A stretch of 64,000 nt of DNA from NCBI GenBank assembly GCA_000091205.1, contig AP006502.2; one strand, given 5' to 3'. Position 1 is the stretch's first letter; each line of letters opens with the position of its first letter. Source of the stretch: Cyanidioschyzon merolae. Its lineage: Eukaryota. Both the position numbers and the translations under genes were made by a program. The notes under the pieces are model-generated. The model was given only the letters and a program-made list of their open reading frames with translations, did no database searches and was not told where the DNA came from. Of the stretch, positions 3,017 through 64,000 are shown piece after piece.

Positions 3017-3245
3017 GACGCAGTGCCGGATCTGCTGATGATTCTATACACCCACACGAAAATGTCTCATCCGTACATGGTGATGCAAGTTTTGCAAGAA
3101 GAGGCAGTGCCGGATCTGCTGGTGATTCGATACACCCCCACGAAAATGTCTCATCCGTACATGGTGAAGCAAGTTTTGCTAGAAGAGGCAGTGCCGGATC
3201 TGCTGGTGATTCTAGACACCCACACGAAAATGTCTCATTTGTCCA
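3017..3245. repeat. 84-bp tandem minisatellite, ~2.7 units
   Basis: The unit gcagtgccggatctgctgRtgattcNatacacccacacgaaaatgtctcatccgtacatggtgaWgcaagttttgcWagaagagg recurs at ~3020, 3104 and 3188 with a few substitutions. Two plus-strand frames read through (ORFs 2995..3291 and 3005..3283) and give repeating 28-aa peptides. Confidence 0.8.
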
Positions 3246-4707: not shown

Positions 4708-6195
4708 TCAGCGCGCATATAGGCGACAAAGGCCACTCCATAGGTACCATTCAGGCTCCTGGTCCAAAGAACGTAGAATTGGATGGTGCAAACTCAGTTG
4801 CAGCAAATGCCCGGTCCAACGATCGGCGATCATTTGCACGATCGCCGGCACTTGGTCGGTTATCTGAACGAGTCCCGAACCAGTCTCAGATAGCTCGAAT
4901 ATCACAAACACGATACACTGTTCACCGTAACAGGAGCGATTCGGGAAGCAGGACAGCCTGCGCGTTGGCGCCTTCAGGCTGAAGGGTGCATGCCGCACAT
5001 TCGAGCTCCGTTGTCGCTGCTCATACAGGCGATATGCAGCCAGAATCCACCAGTGCGATTCATCATCGATATGAACACTAACGAACCGGCGACTTGTCTG
5101 AAAGATTGCGGCCAAGGCGAAGGGTGGCGCTTTTGTGTGTCGTTCTGGGAGCCAGGCTGCTAGGGCGGCTGTCCCGATATCACGTTCCAGGTCCGCTGGC
5201 GTCAGTGAATCTATGAGATTGACCAGTAACCTGTCGTGGGCCTGCGCGTGCTGAACAGCAGCTGTCTGCAGTACCGATGCCTGCAGCGAGCGAATGGGCT
5301 CCTCGTCAAGCACCTGAGGTGCTACCGCGCGACACAACGCATAGATGAGTCGGTAGCGTCCGCTGCCGCCAGCCACGAGGTACAGGGGCTCGTAATCTGG
5401 GGTCTGCAGTCGTACACACGATTCCGCGTGTAGGACACGAACGAGCCCCAGCATGATCAAATACAGAGGTGCTCCGACGTTCATGGAAATGCGCGCCACC
5501 ATCATACCGTTTGCAACGACGTCCACCAGGAGACACGCGGAGACTCGTACTGGACGAGCTCGCTCTTCAACGAGCTTTATGAGACGTTGCATGGAATCCA
5601 TCAGACTGGAGCGCTGGCTCGGATACAACAAGGGACCACTGAGCGGAAGCAGGTCACGGATACAGACGAGCGGATGATGTAGCACCATTTCCAGTACACT
5701 GCCGATGCTATCGCTATCGATATAGGGATGCATGTCAAAGGCGGGCCGAACGTGCAGCGTCGCAAAGACGCTAGTGGGTAGCTGGCTCAGGAGGACTCGT
5801 CGTAACCAGGATTGTAAAGCAAGGCACAGACAACGATAGACAGAGGGTTCTCTCAACTGGCACTGGGGTGCTGAGGCTGGTCCCCCAGGGCTCCGGACCC
5901 CCGCGAGTAAAACGCAGTCGTCGATACTCAGATCCAAACACCAAACGCGTCGTTCACCTTCCACGAGATAGCGATTGCTCCTCTTTCCATAGCTCGGACG
6001 CAGCTTATGTTCGAGGCGAGCCACGAGAGCAGCGGCGCTCGCTCCCAGCGAAACGACAAGTCGACGTTGCTGCCAGTCCGGCCACTGGCGAGTGCTCCAG
6101 AAGAAGAACGGCTTCCCGGCTCGCGTACACGCCAGAACGAGGCACTCTACGGGTCTTTTGCCATAGCGCTTCGTTTCCAACGCTTCCGAGGTCAT
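4708..6195 (-). CDS. hypothetical protein (495 aa)
   Basis: Long ORF with an ATG start (cat at 6193-6195). The sequence is not obviously low-complexity and is too long to be a chance ORF at this GC content. No motif recognised. Confidence 0.45.
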   Translation of the reverse strand: MTSEALETKRYGKRPVECLVLACTRAGKPFFFWSTRQWPDWQQRRLVVSLGASAAALVARLEHKLRPSYGKRSNRYLVEGERRVWCLDLSIDDCVLLAGVRSPGGPASAPQCQLREPSVYRCLCLALQSWLRRVLLSQLPTSVFATLHVRPAFDMHPYIDSDSIGSVLEMVLHHPLVCIRDLLPLSGPLLYPSQRSSLMDSMQRLIKLVEERARPVRVSACLLVDVVANGMMVARISMNVGAPLYLIMLGLVRVLHAESCVRLQTPDYEPLYLVAGGSGRYRLIYALCRAVAPQVLDEEPIRSLQASVLQTAAVQHAQAHDRLLVNLIDSLTPADLERDIGTAALAAWLPERHTKAPPFALAAIFQTSRRFVSVHIDDESHWWILAAYRLYEQRQRSSNVRHAPFSLKAPTRRLSCFPNRSCYGEQCIVFVIFELSETGSGLVQITDQVPAIVQMIADRWTGHLLQLSLHHPILRSLDQEPEWYLWSGLCRLYAR

Positions 6196-10057: not shown

Positions 10058-10104
<47 letters not shown>

Positions 10105-10125
10105 TTGCGTGCGTGCTTGCGTGCA
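10058..10125. repeat. (GCGT)n tetranucleotide microsatellite, ~17 units, alternating purine-pyrimidine
   Basis: gcgtgcgtgcgtgcgtgcgtgcgtgcgtgcgtgcgtgcttgcgtgcgtgcttgcgtgc read directly. It lies between two convergent 3' ends (9493 and 10346). Confidence 0.9.
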
Positions 10126-15602: not shown

Positions 15603-16492
15603 GTCAGCGTTCGATCTGCGGATATTTGCGGATACCTGATCAACCGCTGACGAAAAAGTGCATGCGCAATGACGCGCAACTAGCAATAAGAGACGGTAAA
15701 GTCGTACCGTTAGCTGGCCCTTGCCATTGGGTATATCGAATACGACCCCGCTCTGCCCAGGGCGCGGATATATTCAGCAAAGGCCCGCGCTCGCTAAGCA
15801 GCATTGTATATCGGCAACCGTGAGGCCGCTGCTGCTGCTGCTGCTGTGAGCGTACGTCTGCCCCTGGTATGCTTCGAGTCCAAGCCCGAGCATATTCCAG
15901 CGCATACCAGGGCGCCTGATTACGGTAACGTATCGTTGATGATGCTAGCCGCAGCTCGCGGGTTACCAGGTTGTGTTGGTATGCGCTTCAGAAGAGCGCT
16001 TGTCCGTTTGCTTGCATACGTGCATGCACGACGCAGCTCTGAACCCATTTGCGCTGCGCAGGCATGCTGCTGCAGTGAACACGAGTTTGAGCGCGGCGCG
16101 TTCAGCCAGTTGCAGTCTCTAGAAGATAAACAGACTTTACGTTGAGCTTACGGGAACCAGTTTCCGTCATGGATGACAGGAGCGTTTGTTGCGCTGGATA
16201 CAGCCCCACTTCGCCACGCTTCTGGGACAGGATGCCCACATATCGATATCTCACGTCCGAGATGCTCTTGAAACGCTCCACCTACCAAAACGCTCAACTG
16301 GAAACTGCGGAAACCTTCTCCGTGAGCACCTGCATTCGCGCCTCCCGCACTCGCCTCGAAAACCAACCTGCATGCAGGTTGATGAACGAGCAGGGGCCGA
16401 TCCAGCACACCTCTCCGCAAACAAACGCAGCAGAACGTACGCGCTTCCACGACACATGGTCACAGTGCACATGCGCCAGAACACATCGGTGA

Positions 16493-24280: not shown

Positions 24281-24749
24281 CAAATCAAACGGCTGCAATA
24301 GACTCGTTGTCTTCAGCACTTTTATAGGACCACACGAAAGCGTTGGAAACACTGCACAAAGGTTTCAATATTGCTCGAAAGCGCGTTTGACGCTGCAGTT
24401 GTCGCTGCGTCCGCGTTCGGTATAACTCCGTGAGAGGCGTTTTCCAGTGCTAGCTCGACCAAAACTATACAGTCGATAGAGAGTGACTATCAACTGGAAA
24501 CTTGAAAGGACAAGTTTACAGGTCAATTCTCGCAAGGATTCGTCAGGCCGCACCTGAGCAACCTGCGCAGCACTCGAGTTTCTGCTTGAGCGCACGTTTT
24601 GCGAGATCACGACCACAAGCACCCTTGCAAGCACAACCAAGTTCCTGGAGAAACTTAACGAGTCCGCAGCACTCTCTCAACTAGTTTCTACGTCTCCACA
24701 GAGCAGTGTGCGCGGCTTTCAGTAACGTGCGTCTGCAGCGGGTTTCCAT

Positions 24750-31297: not shown

Positions 31298-33836
31298 GTT
31301 CGAGACTAGCGGTGTCAAGTTCGGAGACAACGCCAGGAAACTGGTCCTGGACACGCTTTTTGAAGCACTCTTCAAGCGACAAGTCGTATGTACGAAGCGG
31401 CGGTGGCGGGTGTTGGGAGCGCCCTGCCCCCGCCAGGCCGCCACCGGGTGCATTCCTGTCCGCACGTTCCAGGCGAGGATCCTAGGGCACAAGCGCTGCA
31501 CCTCTGATGAAGCCTATTGGTTGGGGGTTTTCGCACCTGGACCTATGCAAGCTTTTGTAACTTTCGCTTTTATGGGCGTAGACGTGGAGCATAGGTAGTT
31601 CTATAAACGGTAAGATTGGTTACCTTTAGTGTTCTTGGCGAGTTTTCGCTCGTAGCGTTCGTTACCCGCTCAGAGGGGGAGCGCGTGGTGATGTATGGTA
31701 GGATGCGGGCTCTTCGTTCCTTGAGCGTTTCTCGTGGAGTTCGAATCGTGCAGTTACGACTGTAAACAAGCAGAGGAGAAGCCCGTAAGCTCAACTGTTC
31801 AATTGCTTGTGGGGCACTCTGTTCCATTGATGCGCGATGCGGCACGCTCATAGTCGAAGTACTTGATGCTTGCGCTGGTCAGCAGCAGCAGCAGCAGCAA
31901 TAGCACCAGTGTCCAGATTGAAGTAGCGGCATCCAACTTGCAGAGCAGATCCCGCGGGCTACTGCTGCCGCGAACAAGAAGGCTCCCAACGGGCGTCCCT
32001 CTCTAAACCCGAGAAGGCACTGCTTCGTGCCGGGCTCAGGGGCATTGTCGCCCGCCGCTGCTGCCCTGTCCTGCGACCGGTGCGCCGAGTGAACAACGCT
32101 ATTCGCAGTGACGCATGAGAAACACCGACCCGAGCGCTGCACGGCCTTTCTATGGGACAACGACAGATGACTCAACCGTGTTGGTTTCCGATCGTAAAGC
32201 GCAGCTCATATGACGGAACCACAGCACTGCTCAAAGTATCCGCTCGCACACATTCTATATACGCAGCGGAAGCAAGAAAACTCGATGGACGTGCGCGAGG
32301 TGCTCGGTACATGCATGTTAGAATAGAATGGAAAGAAACAACGTACTTAAGACGGGCGTATGCCCCAAGTATGGGATCTCTTCGCACGGTCATCGACAAC
32401 AGCCTCTGCGAGCTTGCTCTGACACTGATTCCTATTAAACTTTCTTGTATGCGGCTTGATATAAGCGGGTCTCTCCTTCCCCTGTAGCGCCGTTGTGAGC
32501 CGTCGAACGATGTGCATGGCAGTGCCCAAGTCCCGATTCCGCCGATTCCAGCTGTCGTCAACACAATCATGCAGAGACGCAAGATGCGATATACGCCTCG
32601 TTTGCGATGTCCATCTTCTTTGTAGACACCCTCGATGCGCCCTTCTCAGATCTGCGACTTGACTGAACTCAGGTGCGTTCATATGACCGTCATACAATAT
32701 CTTCCATCTCAGAGGGCAACCCTGTGGCACGTGAACACTTGCCTCATCGTTTCGGTACGTGCTCTTGACAGGTGCAGAAGGCTCTTTTTGATGCCGTCCA
32801 CTATTTCCGCATCCGGTGTCGTACTCTCTGATCACGGGCTTTTTCCGGGAGCTGCCCTTCGGCGATTACTTTGTCCGCAGCCAAAGCAAGCGTACGCTGT
32901 CTCATGCGATCGAGAATTTACTTTGCACGATACTGCCCGTAATGCAACAACTAACGGAACAAGAATCTAGGCTGGAAGTCAAGTCCAAAAATTTCCACCC
33001 ATCTACCTTCCCTTCCTGCCGAACAGTGGTCACACACGCTGCACTGGAAACGATCACTGCAATGACCCGAGTCCGCGTCCAAGACCATTTCCATGCAAAC
33101 AGAAGAAACGGGCGCCTCTGAGCACATATCCCATGACAGGTATCGGGTTGGTGTGGAATGCGGTTTCGTCAAAGGCCAGAGAGCGTGAGATTTGTCGTTC
33201 GAGGGAACTCAATCGTTCGATTTGACAAGTTCAGTGAACGCTCGATGTCAGCGTGTGGGCAAGTCAGCAGACGACATCGAGTACCTCTTCGGTCAATGCA
33301 GGTACGCGACTGCGCGGAAACGAGAAGAACCCCAGAATGGAACGCGCTGCGCGCAAGGAGAAACGCAGAGGCTTGTACATATGAACTCGATGATGATATC
33401 GATTATTTTACGAACCCCAGGTTCAGGGCAACGCGAAACGTCTTCATTCCAGTAACGTTACGTATTCCAGTGGCAACGAGTCGAAACAGATACTCCGAAA
33501 GCACCACCACCAAGCATCCTAAAATGACGCATACAACAGTGCGCCCTTCGTGCTGCACACTGAATCTCCAGGCTGCACATCAAAGCAACTTCGGAAAAAG
33601 TCGAAACCCAGGAACCGACCAAGCTGTTCAGGATTCCTGTTGAATATGATGCGGGTCTAAGAGACGCACGTCTCCGCGGCAAAGACACCGTGGGTACGCA
33701 TGGATCGCCGACCTCGCTTCACCGACACGAGTCTTTGCCGACAAGCGTCGCTTGTAGACACAGCGTCAACGCTTTGAACTGCCTGGAGAGATCCATGGCG
33801 CGTAAACGTCGGTACCTAGCCAGTTCAACACAGGGA

Positions 33837-56038: not shown

Positions 56039-56068
<30 letters not shown>
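56039..56068. repeat. (GGCA)7 microsatellite
   Basis: ggcaggcaggcaggcaggcaggcaggcagg read directly. Confidence 0.9.
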
Positions 56069-56468: not shown

Positions 56469-56762
56469 CTACTCGCGGAGCTGCCGTGGCTTGCGCTCAT
56501 CCTGTGCATACTCCCAGCTTTTGCTCGGAAGTTGCACGAGCTTGATCATTGTTCCACGGATATGGAGCGCAGCATAGGAAGCCGCTTGCTCGACCGAGTC
56601 CGTTGTCGCGGCCCGTGAAGCCCCAGTTACTCGTGCGCTCTCCAAGTTCAAGTTCATCCACGGATCAACACCAGTTAAAACGCCAGTGCAGTGCTTTCCA
56701 TTTTTCAGCTCCACAGTGACTTGTTGACCAACGGCACCGCGGACGAGTCCGACCGGCAGCAT
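56469..56762 (-). CDS. LSM2: Sm-like protein LSm2
   Basis: MLPVGLVRGAVGQQVTVELKNGKHCTGVLTGVDPWMNLNLESARVTG...IRGTMIKLVQLP aligns to human LSm2 (MLFYSFFKSLVGKDVVVELKNDLSICGTLHSVDQYLNIKLTDISVTD...IRGSVVRYVQLP). Sm1 and Sm2 motifs are intact. ATG start. Confidence 0.8.
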   Translation of the reverse strand: MLPVGLVRGAVGQQVTVELKNGKHCTGVLTGVDPWMNLNLESARVTGASRAATTDSVEQAASYAALHIRGTMIKLVQLPSKSWEYAQDERKPRQLRE

Positions 56763-57267: not shown

Positions 57268-58917
57268 ATGCAACTTGACAATGGTTCGATTGCGACGTCG
57301 CTGGTGCACGTTGCGACACCAGCAGCAGAGCACGTGTACTGCGTAGCCTGCCAGTGGTCTCCGGCGGACGGGGTCGCTGCTTCAGACGCCAACAACGGCC
57401 ACTCTGCTCCCAGTAAAGCGCTTTCGCCCGAGGCACTGCTCGAAAAGAGACGGCAGCACTACCGCTCTGACTGGCACCGCGTCAACCTGAAGCGTCGCAC
57501 CGCTCAACTACCACCTCTATCGGAGGCTGAGTTCACGGAACGGTGCAGGAACTGGGAAAGCGGCGGTGAAACCGTTCAGATGGATTTCGGCGGACTCGAG
57601 GACGAGAACACCTCAAGCAGCGAGGAACCCTGGAGCAGCTACAGCGTGAAAGTACCTGTGGGATCTGCGCTACCTGAGGACGCCCTGTTCTCCGCCGCTC
57701 GATTTGCGAGGTCGTCAGCCGTGAACGGCGAGCGTCAACCCAGCAGCCGCCGTGTGGCATGCATCTGGTGTCTGAAAGAGTTTTCCAGTGAGAAAGCCCT
57801 GCAACAACACGAGCGTACCGCGAGGCATCGAGAGAAGCTGCGAGAACTTGGCATCCCAGAATCTGATGAGCAGCACCAGCACCAGAAGCAGCAGCAGCAG
57901 CAGCAGCAGCTCATCTCCGGTGCATCAAAGGAAACGAGTCTCGAAACTGCAGACCTGGACGCTTGGCTCGCTGAGCGCATGCAAGAAGCGCGTCCCCTTG
58001 ATATCCACGAATGTCTTTTCTGTAACCACAAGGTTGCCGTTGACGAGAATGTTTCAGAACAGGAGCGCAGCGGCGCTCTCCTTGCAAATCTCCGCCACAT
58101 GGCCAAAGAGCACTCATTCTTTGTGCCCTATATAGAGTACTGCTATGATCTTGCCGGACTCGTACGATACCTGGGAGTCAAGGTCGGTCTTGGCTACTGT
58201 TGCGTGTTCGGGGGAAGGGTCGTGCCGCTCTCGCAAGACACTACGGACTCCGCGGAGCAGCTGTTCGAGCGTCGTGCGGAGGTATTCAGCAGCTTACAGG
58301 CCTGTCGAAATCATATGCGAGATGCTGGGCACTGCCGGTTGCCCGATTTTGATCAGGAGGAGGTTTGGGATGAGTATCAGGAATTCTACAGTTTTACCCC
58401 AGTACGAGCAGACGCGCTGCTGTCGTCTGCCGCGGATGCGAGCGAAGCGCTTTCTCCAGGCACGCCACATGAGGCTGCGGGTGAGGCTGAGTCTGTCGCT
58501 CTTGCGCCATGGGAAAAGTGGGTCTCGGTCGCCGAGGCACCGAGATCTACGCACCCACCAGATGAAGAAGTTGTTGGCCTTCAACTAGGTGCGAGTGGAC
58601 GAACTATTGCACACCGGTCTCTCTGGCGATACTATCGCCAGCGTGTGCATGATCATCACCGCACGCAGCTACCTGTCTGCATTGCTCGACAAGAGCGCCA
58701 GCAGATGGTGCTGGCTTATCAGGAGCTCGCCCACACGGCTGCAATCGGCTTCACTGGACCCGCAGCGTCGCAGCCGTATCCCAGTATTCCACCACGTCGA
58801 GTGCTTGAGCGCTGGCGACGCGACCAGCTCGCACTGGCTGAACGGAACGCAGCGACGCGCCGCGGCCGGGCAGCACGTTCATCCATAGCGGTGCTGAACT
58901 CTGGCTATCGTGGCTAG
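57268..58917 (+). CDS. REI1/ZNF622-like C2H2 zinc-finger protein (cytoplasmic pre-60S maturation factor family)
   Basis: HYRSDWHRVNLKRRTAQLPPLSEAEF matches the REI1 first-finger tail (H.KSDWHRYNLKRRVAQLPP). CLFCNHKV...NLRHMAKEHSFFVPYIEYCYDLAGLVRYLGVKVGLGYCCV matches the REI1 middle region. IAHRSLWRYYRQR matches VGHRSLQRYYKQ. An internal polyQ (HQKQQQQQQQ) is present. The track start is a GTG; the ATG is ~57268. Confidence 0.8.
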   Translation: MQLDNGSIATSLVHVATPAAEHVYCVACQWSPADGVAASDANNGHSAPSKALSPEALLEKRRQHYRSDWHRVNLKRRTAQLPPLSEAEFTERCRNWESGGETVQMDFGGLEDENTSSSEEPWSSYSVKVPVGSALPEDALFSAARFARSSAVNGERQPSSRRVACIWCLKEFSSEKALQQHERTARHREKLRELGIPESDEQHQHQKQQQQQQQLISGASKETSLETADLDAWLAERMQEARPLDIHECLFCNHKVAVDENVSEQERSGALLANLRHMAKEHSFFVPYIEYCYDLAGLVRYLGVKVGLGYCCVFGGRVVPLSQDTTDSAEQLFERRAEVFSSLQACRNHMRDAGHCRLPDFDQEEVWDEYQEFYSFTPVRADALLSSAADASEALSPGTPHEAAGEAESVALAPWEKWVSVAEAPRSTHPPDEEVVGLQLGASGRTIAHRSLWRYYRQRVHDHHRTQLPVCIARQERQQMVLAYQELAHTAAIGFTGPAASQPYPSIPPRRVLERWRRDQLALAERNAATRRGRAARSSIAVLNSGYRG

Positions 58918-60171
58918 TAGCGCATGTTGAACAGGATCCTCGGTTGCAGGCGGAATTGCGGCCGATCAGGCGAATAGATGCCGGTGTCTGAACGGAAGGT
59001 GCGCTGTTTGTTGGCGGCTCGCGGCCAGTATCGCAAGTTCGTATGCGGGACGCTGAAGTGGAACCAGTTCCTCAGCTAGCTTCCTGTTTGCACCTGGATG
59101 CTAAGCCTCGATGCTAGCTCTCTATGTGCAGTGTGCAGGACAGCATGCAGGCAAACAATGAAACAGAGCATGATCCTTATTCGTAAACAGGGCCAGTTAT
59201 CGTGCCGACAGACCCAGGATCCGAGTAAAGGAACTTACGCCCTGCACGTCTAGCTCCAGATTCGCAAAGATATGCATGTGAGCACGGGTGCAAGTCCATT
59301 TAAAATCAAGCGTACAGCGCTTGCTCGATAGATAGAGAATCGAGCAGCACGAAAACTGCATGTGGATGTCACGCTGCAGCGACATTTACCTCCATTTTCT
59401 TCGGGCTTGGACGAGCGACAACGGCTGCCAGGTGAGCCAACATCAACAGCCGAGCGCGATGCCGTTCTCCTGCACGCCCAGCAATGATATGCAGAGTGAC
59501 GGATTCCCATTCATTCCATCTGGTCAGCGCTCTTTCGCGACAACTGATATTAATGTAAGCAATCTGTTTGGAGAATTTACATACGCATGCATAAAACGGG
59601 ACCTTGTTTTCGTGCTGTTCTGCCTGGTCGTGAAGCGTAGCGCGATGCGTCGAGTCCTCGGTCGTTTCCGCGGACTGGAGCTATACTGGCGAATCTCGTC
59701 AGTGCACACACGTCAAGTCGACGGATATCTGCCTCTGGAATCGCTGGAATCGTTCACCAGGGATATGGGGAGCACTCGACGCTTCAAGTATGCCCTCTTG
59801 GTGCACGCTGAAGAATCGAATCATGGAACACCAGCATCATCTATCAATCGCCCAGGAAAATCGTTATAGGTATCAAGAAACGGTGCTCCAGCCCCTCGAT
59901 TCAGCGGAACTACACTGCACTAGTGCCGCGCTCTAGACGAAAGTCTGATCCCCGTTCCCCTCGCCACTGCTCTTTGTCCATCAGAATTCTTTAATAATTG
60001 TGCACCATGCCCACACGGCATGCAACACGATTCCCTCGAATATTCATTTGACAAAACGCTGCGGGACGCTTCGGAAGCACGAAGCATTTCCTCACTTTGA
60101 CCGAGGCGTTCAAGTCTCCGCGCAGAAAGTACGTGCACACATGATTGCTGTTGGAATTATACCATAACAAA

Positions 60172-61803
60172 CTACCTGCATTCGACTGCCTCGCCATCTG
60201 GCTGGACGTCAGCATACCGGGAATCATCCCGTACGTTCTGCTCTTTTGTGAGACGCTTCTTCTCTTCCAGTTCCAACGCGTATTTGTGCTTGTGATGCGC
60301 GTATGCTGTCCTAGACGCATCGATGAACATCGGATACATTGGATTGCTGCATTCGTTGTACGTTCTCTTCCGGGGAGCAGCGGTGCAGCCCTTGCGAGCT
60401 AGAATACGTCCAGGGCCACCGGCGACCTTCAAACGAAGCGACGTATCGGAAATTTGCTTTTCTAAATCATAGAGTATACTCGGGAATGCTCGCTGCTTGC
60501 GTTCGTAGAACTGCAACCTTTTGCGAACCTCTACTTTGTCTCACTGACTCCTGAAAAGTACACTCCGAGTGAGCCTTTCGGACGTTCGCGACTTCAATAA
60601 TAACGAAGCACACAGAGCATGCTTCTCTGCTCGATTAGGTACCGAGCGCGTTGATGTGGCCCTGCTGTCATCATTCCACCTGTTGTTAAACGTACTTGCG
60701 TCCATTACGCTGGATTTCCAACGATATCTAGCTATGGGAAGGTCAGCTCGCATAGCATCTTCTGTCTGGTGTACCAATCCTCGCGGGAATGTTTGATAGA
60801 AGAATTCCAGAGGGATATAGGCAGCTGGCAGCTCTGCGTCTGGAACTGTCACGAACAGTTGCATGACGAGATATGTCACGCCGAGGAAGGCTAAGCGAGA
60901 CTTTCTCGAATAAGAACCTATGCGATCGTCAATGAAGGCGAGCATGAATCGACGCCAAGGATACGTAAGATTCGTCTGCTGATCTGGGAGCGTAGAATTG
61001 GTGTTTGATGTAAGAGAAGACACCTTGAATGGGAACGAACCATGGAGAACGGGCTCGTACGACGATAAGCTCAACGCCAAGCTCAGTTGCGTACTTTTTG
61101 ACCGCTTTTGATTGATGAAAAGCGACATTTTCAGAGAGAGCAGCCACGAAGCGTACATCGCTGAAGAATGAGGTGTCGAATGATCCGGTCTGTTTGGCGA
61201 TTTCTAGGCGACCAAACGATTGATTCGCCGCTGCCACTGGTAGTGTCGCCGTGCTCGCTCGTCGCTGCTTTACGAACAGCGGCTTGTTTACACGTTTGAG
61301 GGCCCAAATACACAGGTCTGCCATTTCTCCGAAATAAAATCTCCCCGAGAAAGACGTACACACGTCAGTCCTGTAATACGTGTTGCAGTTTTACTATGAA
61401 ATAGACGGCGCTGCTCAACGCGCAACCGCCTTCCATGGAAGCGTCTTTTCTTCTCCATCCATGTCTTTTTCTTTCCTTTTGTATCAACGGCACGGCAACT
61501 GTGCATCTTGAGGCTTCTTCTACAGTATTTCTTCGTGAGCATGCAGATTAGAATGGCTTGCTCCGGAGCCAATTGTGTTGATCGAGCTGGAGAAACTCTG
61601 TTTTGTGCGAAAGGCGTTCTGGATACGGACTGCAAGAAGGATGGATCTTCCCGCACCTGTTGATTGCCGAGTACCTGGCTTGGACAGGAGAGGTCTTTTT
61701 CGCACGCTAGTAGAGACACCATCAAGCTAGTCCGCGAACGTTCTCCAATGTGCAGGATAGAATCCGTTTCTTGATTACCTGCCAGAAAAACAAACGCAAA
61801 CAA
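60172..61803 (-). other. run of four consecutive minus-strand ORFs in different frames (possible intron-containing, frameshifted or decayed gene)
   Basis: ORFs 61288..61803, 60929..61363, 60541..61158 and 60172..60516 overlap or abut on the same strand in shifting frames. The sequences are hydrophobic and protein-like (KSRLAFLGVTYLVMQLFVTVPDAELPAAYIPLEFFYQTFPRGLV). No family recognised. Confidence 0.15.
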
Positions 61804-62769
61804 TTAAGGTGTATTGCGACGGGAATTCCAGAATTCACTGCTCTGCATGTAACGATAGGGGGTCGCTGTTGTGCCAACGGACGTACTGCCAACGCCTGTT
61901 GGGCCACGAAGCACACCTACGACCTAGGGGCTACGCAACGCTTCTAGCAAGGGACGTTCGGGTCCCTCGCATTCGCCCCAGGCACCGAGCGGCTCGTCAG
62001 AATGTCAAAGGGCTGCTTCTTGCAAACTCCGCCCTCATCGCGCATAGGTGTAGTGTGCGCTCATGAAGAGTTGGAACAACACAGAATCGCGTCTGTGACA
62101 CTGTTAATTCTGACGCACTTAGTATTGCCCTGCCGACTAACGGAGCTGGAGTGCAACTGTCTCCTTGGTGCCTAGCAACTTCTGGGCGTCACTATGGACG
62201 CCAACTGGTTACCGCTCACGCCCAGTGCAGCGCTGGCATCCGAAGTAGCCCCGCCCGAGCCGCTCCAATATCATGGCCAGTAGACAGACCCGCGAGGTCC
62301 AGGTACAAGTCTCGCGTATTGGACGAGCCCAATGGGCCAGTGCTCGGAGCGCCTCCGCAGTTGCAGGTGCCGAGCAAAGGCCTGTGTCCAGAGACGGCTA
62401 CGCGTTCTCCAAGCGACCGCGAAGATAGCGCCGGACACTGAAACTGTGTCCTGGTCGCCACGGACCTCCAGTGTGACTGCACTTGCCGATTGACAGACAG
62501 CTCGAGCCGATGTAGCAAACAGGCAGAGAATGGCCTTTTGGTCTCTCTTTATGCGTTCGATCACCGGTGCGTCACCGAATCCATCAGGCCCCTATTCCTG
62601 CGAAGCATACCTGTCTGGAACAGTTGGAACGGTTAGTCGTCTGCATGGAAAGTAAACCCGGTTTCCTAATCACGACTACGACTCATACAGCCCGTGTTAC
62701 CTGGCTCTATATAACCGCCTCATCGAAGTCAATGCACGACTCGTTGGCTAAGTACGGTTGGCAGCGGAC

Positions 62770-63665
62770 CCGTTGCACTGCACCAGGCACAGCGCTACAT
62801 GCTACCGTCCAGGCACATGCGCATTCGTGCAATGGACACACCGCGCTCTACACACTGCTCCATCACCGCTGGCGAGTAAGGAGTGGCTGTGGGGAGCGCC
62901 GCCGGGGAGATTCATGCTAGATCGCGACATGGCGTGCAGTGGACACACCGCGCTCTACACACTGCTCCATCACCGCTGGCGAATAAGGAGAGCTGTGGCG
63001 AGCGCCGCCCCCGCCGCCGCCACCGGGGAGATTCATGCTAGATCGCGACTGGCGTGCAATGGACACACCGCGCTCTACACACTGCTCCATCACCGCTGGC
63101 GAATAAGGAGTGGCTGTGGGGAGCGCCGCCCCCGCCGCCGCCACCGGGGAGATTCATGCTAGATCGCGACGGGCGTGCAATGGACACACCGCGCTCTACA
63201 CACTGCTCCATCACCGCTGGCGAATAAGGAGTGGCTGTGGGGAGCGCCGCCCCCGCCGCCGCCACCGGGGAGATTCATGCTAGATCGCGACGGGCGTGCA
63301 ATGGACACACCGCGCTCTACACACTGCTCCATCACCGCTGGCGAGTAAGGAGTGGCTGTGGCGAGCGCCGCCCCCCGCCGCCGCCACCGGGGAGATTCAT
63401 GCTAGATCGCGACATGGCGTGCAATGGACACACCGCGCTCTACACACTGCTCCATCACCGCTGGCGAGTAAGGAGTGGCTGTGGCGAGCGCCGCCCCCGC
63501 CGCCGCCACCGGGGAGATTCATGCTAGATCGCGACATGGCGTGCAATGGACACACCGCGCTCTACACACTGCTCCATCACCGCTGGCGAGTAAGGAGTGG
63601 CTGTGGCGAGCGCCGCCCCCCGCCGCCGCCACCGGGGAGATTCATGCTAGATCGCGACATGGCGT
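62770..63665. repeat. ~121-bp tandem satellite array, ~7 units
   Basis: The unit gtgcaatggacacaccgcgctctacacactgctccatcaccgctggcgaRtaaggagtggctgtggSgagcgccgcc(cccgccgccgccacc)ggggagattcatgctagatcgcgacRtggc starts at ~62827, 62934, 63054, 63175, 63296, 63418 and 63539. The first unit lacks the (CCG)n segment, and a degenerate copy lies upstream. The unit length is not a multiple of 3, so the ORFs across it on both strands change frame each unit. Confidence 0.9.
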
Positions 63666-63764
63666 CGTGTCGCATCGATCTGCGCCAACAGATCACGTGC
63701 GGTTCGCACGCTACCGTCAAGCGTTTTCCCTCGCCGCACAGCGCATTCCACAGAGCCAACGAGT

Positions 63765-64000
63765 ATGAGCGATCAACCAAGCGTATCCGTTAAAGTGCCT
63801 CTTTATGAGAAGATCTACCAGTTAGATGGGTTCATTGGCGACGAGGAGCGAAACGCTTTACAACTTCCTGAAGGCGTCGACGAAGCTGGACTCTTCGTCA
63901 CTGTCTACGTTTCCCGAGAGAGCACGTACCCCGGTGATGCACCAGCTGGTGGTGCGACTCCTCACGAGAACACAGGAGATCCGAGCGTTGCTCGCGAGGA
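63765..64000 (+). CDS. 3'-truncated ORF of unknown function running off the window end
   Basis: ATG near 63765, then MSDQPSVSVKVPLYEKIYQLDGFIGDEERNALQLPEGVDEAGLFVTVYVSRESTYPGDAPAGG..., open to nt 64000. Its composition is globular and unlike the adjacent satellite. Not in the ORF track because no stop codon lies within the window. Confidence 0.25.
   Translation, partial: MSDQPSVSVKVPLYEKIYQLDGFIGDEERNALQLPEGVDEAGLFVTVYVSRESTYPGDAPAGGATPHENTGDPSVARE

Follow-up and report, generated by a model that had tools for sequence, protein, structure and literature searches.

A polymorphic non-coding minisatellite, probably specific to its locus, in the proximal upstream region of the starch gene CmGWD of Cyanidioschyzon merolae

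The tandem array that lies just before the gene for alpha-glucan water dikinase, CmGWD, on chromosome 20 of Cyanidioschyzon merolae 10D is a genuine, ordinary non-coding tandem repeat. We analysed it within a stretch of 64,000 nucleotides, which we call the window, and we consider it highly probable that it is a non-coding minisatellite (VNTR) specific to this one place, the proximal CmGWD upstream region, and that it arose by tandem duplication and was then altered by slippage or exchange. An initial annotation of this DNA, made from the sequence alone, had granted that a unit occurring only here in the genome would make the array a locus-specific minisatellite, and of all the descriptions considered this one fits the evidence best: the array is restricted to this locus, both within the window and among the metagenome contigs that were scanned. 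Its structure is that of a minisatellite, a class defined by head-to-tail units of about 10 to 100 or more bp at one locus, for there are seven such units of 107-123 bp. The features are listed here in window positions, with no strand assigned unless one is given.

62827-63665: minisatellite array of seven head-to-tail units, 839 bp, 66% G+C (from Tandem Repeats Finder, k-mers and alignment)
62827-62933: unit u1, 107 bp
62934-63053: unit u2, 120 bp
63054-63174: unit u3, 121 bp
63175-63295: unit u4, 121 bp, identical to u3
63296-63418: unit u5, 123 bp
63419-63540: unit u6, 122 bp, one C different in the C-run from u5 and u7
63541-63663: unit u7, 123 bp, identical to u5
62934-63295: subtype of units 2-4, 'GAATAAGG ... 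GAC(T/GG)GGC' (alignment)
63296-63665: subtype of units 5-7, 'GAGTAAGG ... GGCGAG ... GACATGGC' (alignment)
63489-63511: length-variable tract of C-run + (GCC)n + ACC, the example of u6 (period-3 rows of Tandem Repeats Finder)
63003-63025, 63124-63146 and 63245-63267: equivalents of the u6 tract (period-3 rows of Tandem Repeats Finder)
63666-63764, + strand: unique spacer of 99 nt between the array and the CmGWD start codon, with CACGTG at 63694-63699
63765-64000, + strand: first 78 codons of CMT547C (CmGWD, alpha-glucan water dikinase, 'starch associated protein R1'), an ORF that leaves the window

A regular array of about seven units of ~121 bp had been read off the sequence in the initial annotation, and the Tandem Repeats Finder run that it proposed confirms this: positions 62897-63665 are recovered with period 121, 6.3 copies, 97% matches, 0 indels at that period and a score of 1422, by far the strongest repeat in the 64-kb window. 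A 25-mer from the unit (GGGGAGATTCATGCTAGATCGCGAC) and a 42-mer unit core each occur in seven copies, all on the + strand and all within the array, where 100 dinucleotide-preserving shuffles lead us to expect 0. Unit boundaries were set by anchoring and aligning on the invariant core, which gave seven complete units. The array had been taken to begin at 62770, but this is 57 nt too early; it begins at about 62827, where the 5' edge of u1 joins unique flank as TTC/GTGCAATGG (the slash marks the junction). At the 3' edge the unit meets the flank as ATGGC/GTCGTG, and a C-G-T microhomology of 3 nt is all that blurs the array boundary at 63665. The degenerate unit that had been reported upstream of the array did not survive comparison with shuffled sequence, since the 122 nt before u1 score 15 against 15.1 +/- 2.3 for the shuffles, 254 of 500 of which equal it.

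The shorter first unit, in contrast, was seen correctly. Aligned with the others, u1 is without 15 columns (15 nt) of the C/G-rich CCCGCCGCCGCCACC tract, a C-run/(GCC)n sequence, and its 107 bp remain the one exception to a unit size that had been given as 120-122 bp and that for the remaining units is 120-123 bp. The element GCTAGATCGCGAC, which had been called palindromic-looking, does contain a palindrome, limited however to the 6-bp core TCGCGA, and a search of the unit for inverted repeats and palindromes found no inverted repeat of at least 20 nt. On the minus strand the C-run/(GCC)n tract reads GGTGGCGGCGG, a two-tetrad G4-type pattern; no G3+ quadruplex motif was found in the array.

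The gene that follows is unrelated to the repeat, as had been proposed, and its ATG lies at 63765, so that the array covers -938 to -100 relative to this ATG and sits in the 5' regulatory region of CmGWD. The full CmGWD ORF has 1572 aa in contig L006, with Pfam domains Ig_N_CWD1, GWD1_pHisD and PPDK_N; the 10D protein BAM83464.1 belongs to the same 90% cluster, and its first 78 residues are those of the window translation. CmGWD (CMT547C) is the route by which TOR signalling controls starch degradation (PMC11986951). The core promoter and a short 5' leader are probably to be found in the 99-nt spacer; CAACGAGT stands immediately before the GWD ATG. Published primers for a 'CMT547C upstream' knockout arm (PMC11986951; cores CGGACCCGTTGCACTGCACC and ACTCGTTGGCTCTGTGGAAT) map to 62765-62784 and 63745-63764, which makes the arm 1,000 bp long, with 839 bp (84%) of it array. 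The text of that paper places the arm at -2,500 to -1,000, in disagreement with its own primer sequences.

As to the wider surroundings, six of six long ORFs compared are residue-for-residue identical to 10D proteins of a 1,621,617-bp record, in the series BAM83444-BAM83458, CMT524C and CMT538C among them; for four of the six this record is the only known source. The gene content includes a mitochondrial carrier, a Rad17-like protein, a BRK-domain protein and an ammonium transporter, together with many trinucleotide microsatellites. The annotated proteins that precede CmGWD in accession order are an LSm protein at 56469-56762 (BAM83462) and then a C2H2 zinc-finger gene ending at 58917. Positions 58918-63764 form a single long intergenic region; BAM83462, 83463 and 83464 are consecutive, and the annotation places no protein gene from the zinc-finger gene to GWD. 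The part before the array, 58918-62826, makes up ~3.9 of the 4.85 kb of intergenic sequence and is unusually long, with a G+C content of 0.48-0.51 at 59.1-61.8 kb. An ORF on the minus strand at 60929-61363 has a sub-threshold match to the DDE_3 transposase (E = 0.0056, 17 bits), and a search of the long stretch for terminal inverted repeats gave none that convince, only two short ones at chance level; the stretch may be a decayed DNA transposon. The LSm protein (97 aa, U6 snRNA-associated Sm-like, 56469-56762, minus strand) is worth a remark of its own: BAM83462.1 is identical to BAM79586.1 elsewhere in the 10D proteome, and the two genes are exact duplicates in a genome known for few duplications. 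The window also holds a second intergenic minisatellite at 3020-3238 (84-bp unit, 2.6 copies, 94% matches), between an ORF ending at 1912 and a gene at 4708-6195 on the minus strand; two tetranucleotide microsatellites, (TGCG)16.8 at 10058-10124 and (GGCA)7.5 at 56039-56068; and many perfect trinucleotide runs (CAG, CTG, AGC, TGC, GCT). Several of these runs overlap long ORFs, as at 15828, 38939 and 48221.

How does the array differ between strains? An exact scan with the 42-mer through a metagenome collection returned two contigs, both from the CmGWD-upstream locus; the scan covered part of the available assemblies, and contig L013 has the 42-mer yet was not returned. In contig L005 a single 117-bp unit stands between flanks shared with 10D, while two diverged units of 116 + 116 bp are found in L006 and likewise in L007, an independent ENA contig. 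The flanks of these three contigs match the window at 98-98.7% identity over 2.7-5 kb, in line with divergence within a species; between 10D and MS1 the genome-wide divergence is 0.71% (PMC13353863). The internal segment, described initially as an expandable (CCG)n, does vary between units as well as between alleles: it is absent in u1 of 10D and takes the form (GCC)2 in L005, L006 and L016, (GCC)3ACC in 10D, L013, L014 and L023, and (GCC)4 in L018, and we therefore regard the tract as truly length-variable. The GCCACC insertion that is typical of 10D units 2-7 is absent from L005, L006 and L007 and present in L013, L014 and L023. Since tandem units that are identical may be merged by De Bruijn assemblers, the counts of one unit (L005) and two units (L006, L007) in contigs from short reads are lower bounds. 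The alleles certainly differ in sequence and in tract length, and a comparison of the contigs suggests that copy number, at one, two and seven units, is likely to differ among strains too.

A further 17 short-read contigs of CmGWD (L013-L029; window 63496-63764) all break off at most 270 nt before the ATG. Thirteen of them stop at -58 to -269, seven of these inside the array or at its edge; eight short-read contigs end between -58 and -129, and none of the 17 reaches the unique flank upstream of the array. Four carry artificial junctions at -10 to -17, where the sequence passes into the 5'UTR and coding sequence of eEF1A (L028; Pfam GTP_EFTU), into what was read as ribosomal-protein coding sequence, with no Pfam match in the one frame scanned (L015), into an Illumina adapter (L021) or into the contig itself (L017, a self-join). 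Such junctions resemble template switching by reverse transcriptase, and we infer from them an mRNA 5' end near -15. The short contigs that stop near the array showed no poly(A) tails, and the signals for a metagenomic as against a cDNA origin are mixed; other contigs in this sample series are clearly genomic.

The one-unit allele offers a simple view of how the array may have come about. In L005 the future unit is native sequence from about -217 to -101, and we propose that a tandem duplication of this promoter-proximal piece of ~117 bp, single-copy in that allele, founded the array. The 3-nt C-G-T microhomology at the endpoints fits a microhomology-mediated tandem duplication. Growth and shrinkage would then have followed by replication slippage, by unequal sister-chromatid or meiotic exchange, or by both, and recent slippage or unequal exchange within the array would explain why neighbouring units are identical (u3 and u4; u5 and u7, with u6 nearly so). 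We expect the C-run/(GCC)n tract to slip independently, in the manner of a microsatellite, which would account for unit lengths from 107 to 123 bp, and the two-tetrad G4-type pattern of GGTGGCGGCGG could promote such slippage. Since 10D is a haploid clone able to mate (PMC13353863), mitotic and meiotic unequal exchange are both possible in nature. This mutational mechanism is the one that the pattern of units and alleles suggests to us. As for its effect, selection probably does not act on the array, which at most would modify CmGWD transcription; such an effect could come from multiplied factor sites and from upstream elements being pushed ~720 bp away.

The restriction of the unit to this place rests on several comparisons. 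Exact k-mers and unit comparison found it nowhere else in the 64-kb window, and 185,579 prokaryote species genomes contain no exact match. Two other Cyanidiales, one lineage represented by L008-L011 and Cyanidiococcus yangmingshanensis by L012, have GWD orthologues at 74% and 76% protein identity; nothing resembling the unit lies upstream of these genes. The GWD upstream sequence is unrelated in both, and the repeat is young and species-specific. Exact look-up of a 205-aa ORF, of the ammonium transporter ORF and of the 10D GWD protein brought no further contigs. The C. yangmingshanensis contig has a repeat of its own at L012:2055-2396 (VWRR01000013.1; 116 bp, 2.9 copies, 83% matches), which resembles the C. 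merolae array in being non-coding, in its similar period and in lying in the syntenic interval between the zf-C2H2 gene and GWD. However, it is placed just downstream of the zinc-finger gene, whereas the C. merolae array adjoins GWD. The two unit sequences are unrelated, with a best local score of 16 where shuffles reach 15.3 +/- 2.3, and so the Cyanidiococcus repeat arose independently. Our literature search found no paper on this array, nor on minisatellites in C. merolae, although the sequence has been public since the genome was completed; the array belongs to a well-known kind of repeat.

A regular array with a unit of more than 100 bp bears a general resemblance to the satellites that mark chromosomes, and the initial annotation had suggested a centromere- or subtelomere-associated repeat, that is, a member of a genome-wide family of landmarks. 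We find this very improbable. A centromeric satellite would be a long array free of genes that coincides with the CENH3-bound region. This one measures 839 bp (0.84 kb), has 66% G+C and stops 100 nt short of a housekeeping gene that is expressed; the window is dense in genes, and in L006 they run on for at least 11 kb beyond the array. The subtelomeres of C. merolae are blocks of up to 20 kb, homologous between chromosome ends, that adjoin the telomeres, whose repeat is AATGGGGGG; the end 20R has none (PMC1955436). Across the Cyanidiales subtelomeres average 6.7-11.8 kb. The window contains no AATGGGGGG, and the window and the metagenome scan showed the unit at the CmGWD locus only; moreover, the paper on the 100%-complete genome (PMC1955436) makes no mention of satellite arrays. 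An error of assembly, in the form of a wrong unit number in the reference or of a repeat absent in vivo, is about equally improbable. Tandem repeats are prone to such errors, and the 2004 draft did have misassemblies, since fixed (PMC1955436), but the 10D sequence is now finished, gap-free and verified by BAC and PCR (PMC1955436), the region has been amplified by PCR as a knockout arm (PMC11986951), in the independent assemblies L006 and L007 the unit is likewise duplicated in tandem at this position, and the pattern of variants across units is consistent.

Coding sequence would explain repeated units in another way, as an N-terminal extension of GWD or as a separate repeat protein. Indeed + strand ORFs of up to 165 aa cross the array, and in one gene call from a metagenome, P0019 (1612 aa), GWD is 40 residues longer and reaches into the last unit. 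Yet a coding tandem repeat would have a unit in multiples of 3 and one open frame, and here, with units of 107, 116, 117 and 120-123 bp, almost every step changes the frame, as the initial annotation had already argued from the unit length (107, 120, 121, 121, 123, 122 and 123 bp in 10D); each of the six frames has 4-10 stops; the 165-aa ORF at 63296-63793, the longest, is in a different frame from the GWD ATG at 63765; and the 10D reference protein starts at that ATG, as do seven of the eight full-length cluster members. Pfam had no match for the ORFs of the array, and the 165-aa ORF has no homologue at E<=0.001 among 5.8 billion proteins, so we regard a coding role as next to impossible. An equally poor prospect is a tandem set of genes for small structured RNAs, snoRNA-like or other ncRNA, which the size of the unit alone might bring to mind. 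The length variation falls in mid-unit, Rfam has no match on the array at the gathering threshold nor at E<=1, and a tRNA scan had none either. Nor is there an extra-stable fold, since the unit, in two phases and on both strands, folds no better than dinucleotide shuffles (z from -0.69 to +0.95).

Of the other meanings that the initial annotation suggested, a nucleosome-length minisatellite has no support, the unit measuring 121 bp. Of greater interest is the reading, also suggested there, in which the array is a functional cis-regulatory one, with units that carry binding sites or a copy of a promoter or start site and with a length that sets CmGWD transcription or adds leaders rich in upstream ATGs. 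Strains would in that case gain heritable, quickly mutable differences in starch turnover. The array does occupy -938 to -100 relative to the ATG, a stretch in which one would look for promoter elements, its single-copy form is native proximal upstream sequence, alleles vary among populations, and some short-read contigs, possibly derived from cDNA, begin within the last one or two units. Moreover, the 9-mer CAACGAGTC, conserved in three species, and the ATG are separated by 307 nt where the allele has one unit and by 1027 nt in 10D. The window has four copies of this 9-mer where 0.75 would be expected, none of them in a long ORF (62738-62746 and 24301-24309 on the minus strand, 2510-2518 and 33474-33482 on the plus strand), and the 9-mer recurs within 400 nt upstream of GWD in both other Cyanidiales species (at about -233 in L009 and -283 in L012); shuffling gives p ~ 0.0035 for such a three-way shared 9-mer, which may be a conserved cis element. 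Against a regulatory function of the array, conservation of the unit sequence does not extend to the two related species, and most promoter minisatellites are neutral. In addition each unit has 2-3 sense ATGs, 17 in total, so that transcription through the array should hamper translation rather than tune it. The same 17 ATGs would make poor leaders for transcripts from upstream of the array or from inside it, which points to a main start site in the 99-nt spacer. A scan for promoters and terminators of bacterial type was uninformative, the host being eukaryotic. On balance we think a regulatory function unlikely, though far better placed than the satellite or the artefact. One could go a step further and imagine a copy-number-tunable CmGWD promoter module, in which repeat length brings heritable and reversible differences between strains in starch degradation; each added unit would bring factor sites and possibly a cryptic start site with leaders laden with upstream ATGs, and extra units would shift conserved upstream elements away from the gene. 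This more specific proposal seems to us somewhat less likely again.

The array can be compared with repeats known elsewhere. Unstable tandem repeats occur in yeast promoters. With promoter VNTRs such as human MNS16A at TERT (PMC5438627) the array has in common that its units are non-coding, run head to tail and lie 5' of one gene. The likeness extends to a G+C-rich sequence, blocks of identical neighbours and allelic differences in sequence and probably in unit number, and in both cases the number and spacing of factor sites could be altered. The C. merolae unit of 116-123 bp, however, is at the long end for minisatellites, and the host is a haploid clone of a red alga with an unusually repeat-poor genome, in which transposable elements make up 0.7%. 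Human CEB1 and CEB25 (PMC3486850) are likewise G+C-rich tandem repeats with a strand-biased G-run/(GGC)n tract, but the array differs from them in not being subtelomeric and in having no G3+ quadruplex motif. Within C. merolae itself the subtelomeric elements and the centromeres are the other repeated DNA to compare. The former are of kb scale and shared between chromosome ends next to AATGGGGGG, whereas the array occupies one internal locus; the latter are single CENH3-enriched regions, one per chromosome, and in the literature covered they are not satellite arrays.

C. merolae is prized for an almost repeat-free and fully finished genome, and a polymorphic minisatellite of 0.84 kb beside a well-studied, TOR-regulated starch gene is a handy marker of strains and haplotypes, the more so now that crosses of 10D with other strains are possible (PMC13353863). 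Whoever takes a promoter or homology arm from upstream of CmGWD is working with a recombination-prone repeat, as the published arm illustrates. Finally, if repeat length does affect CmGWD expression, the array would provide a simple natural handle on starch turnover.
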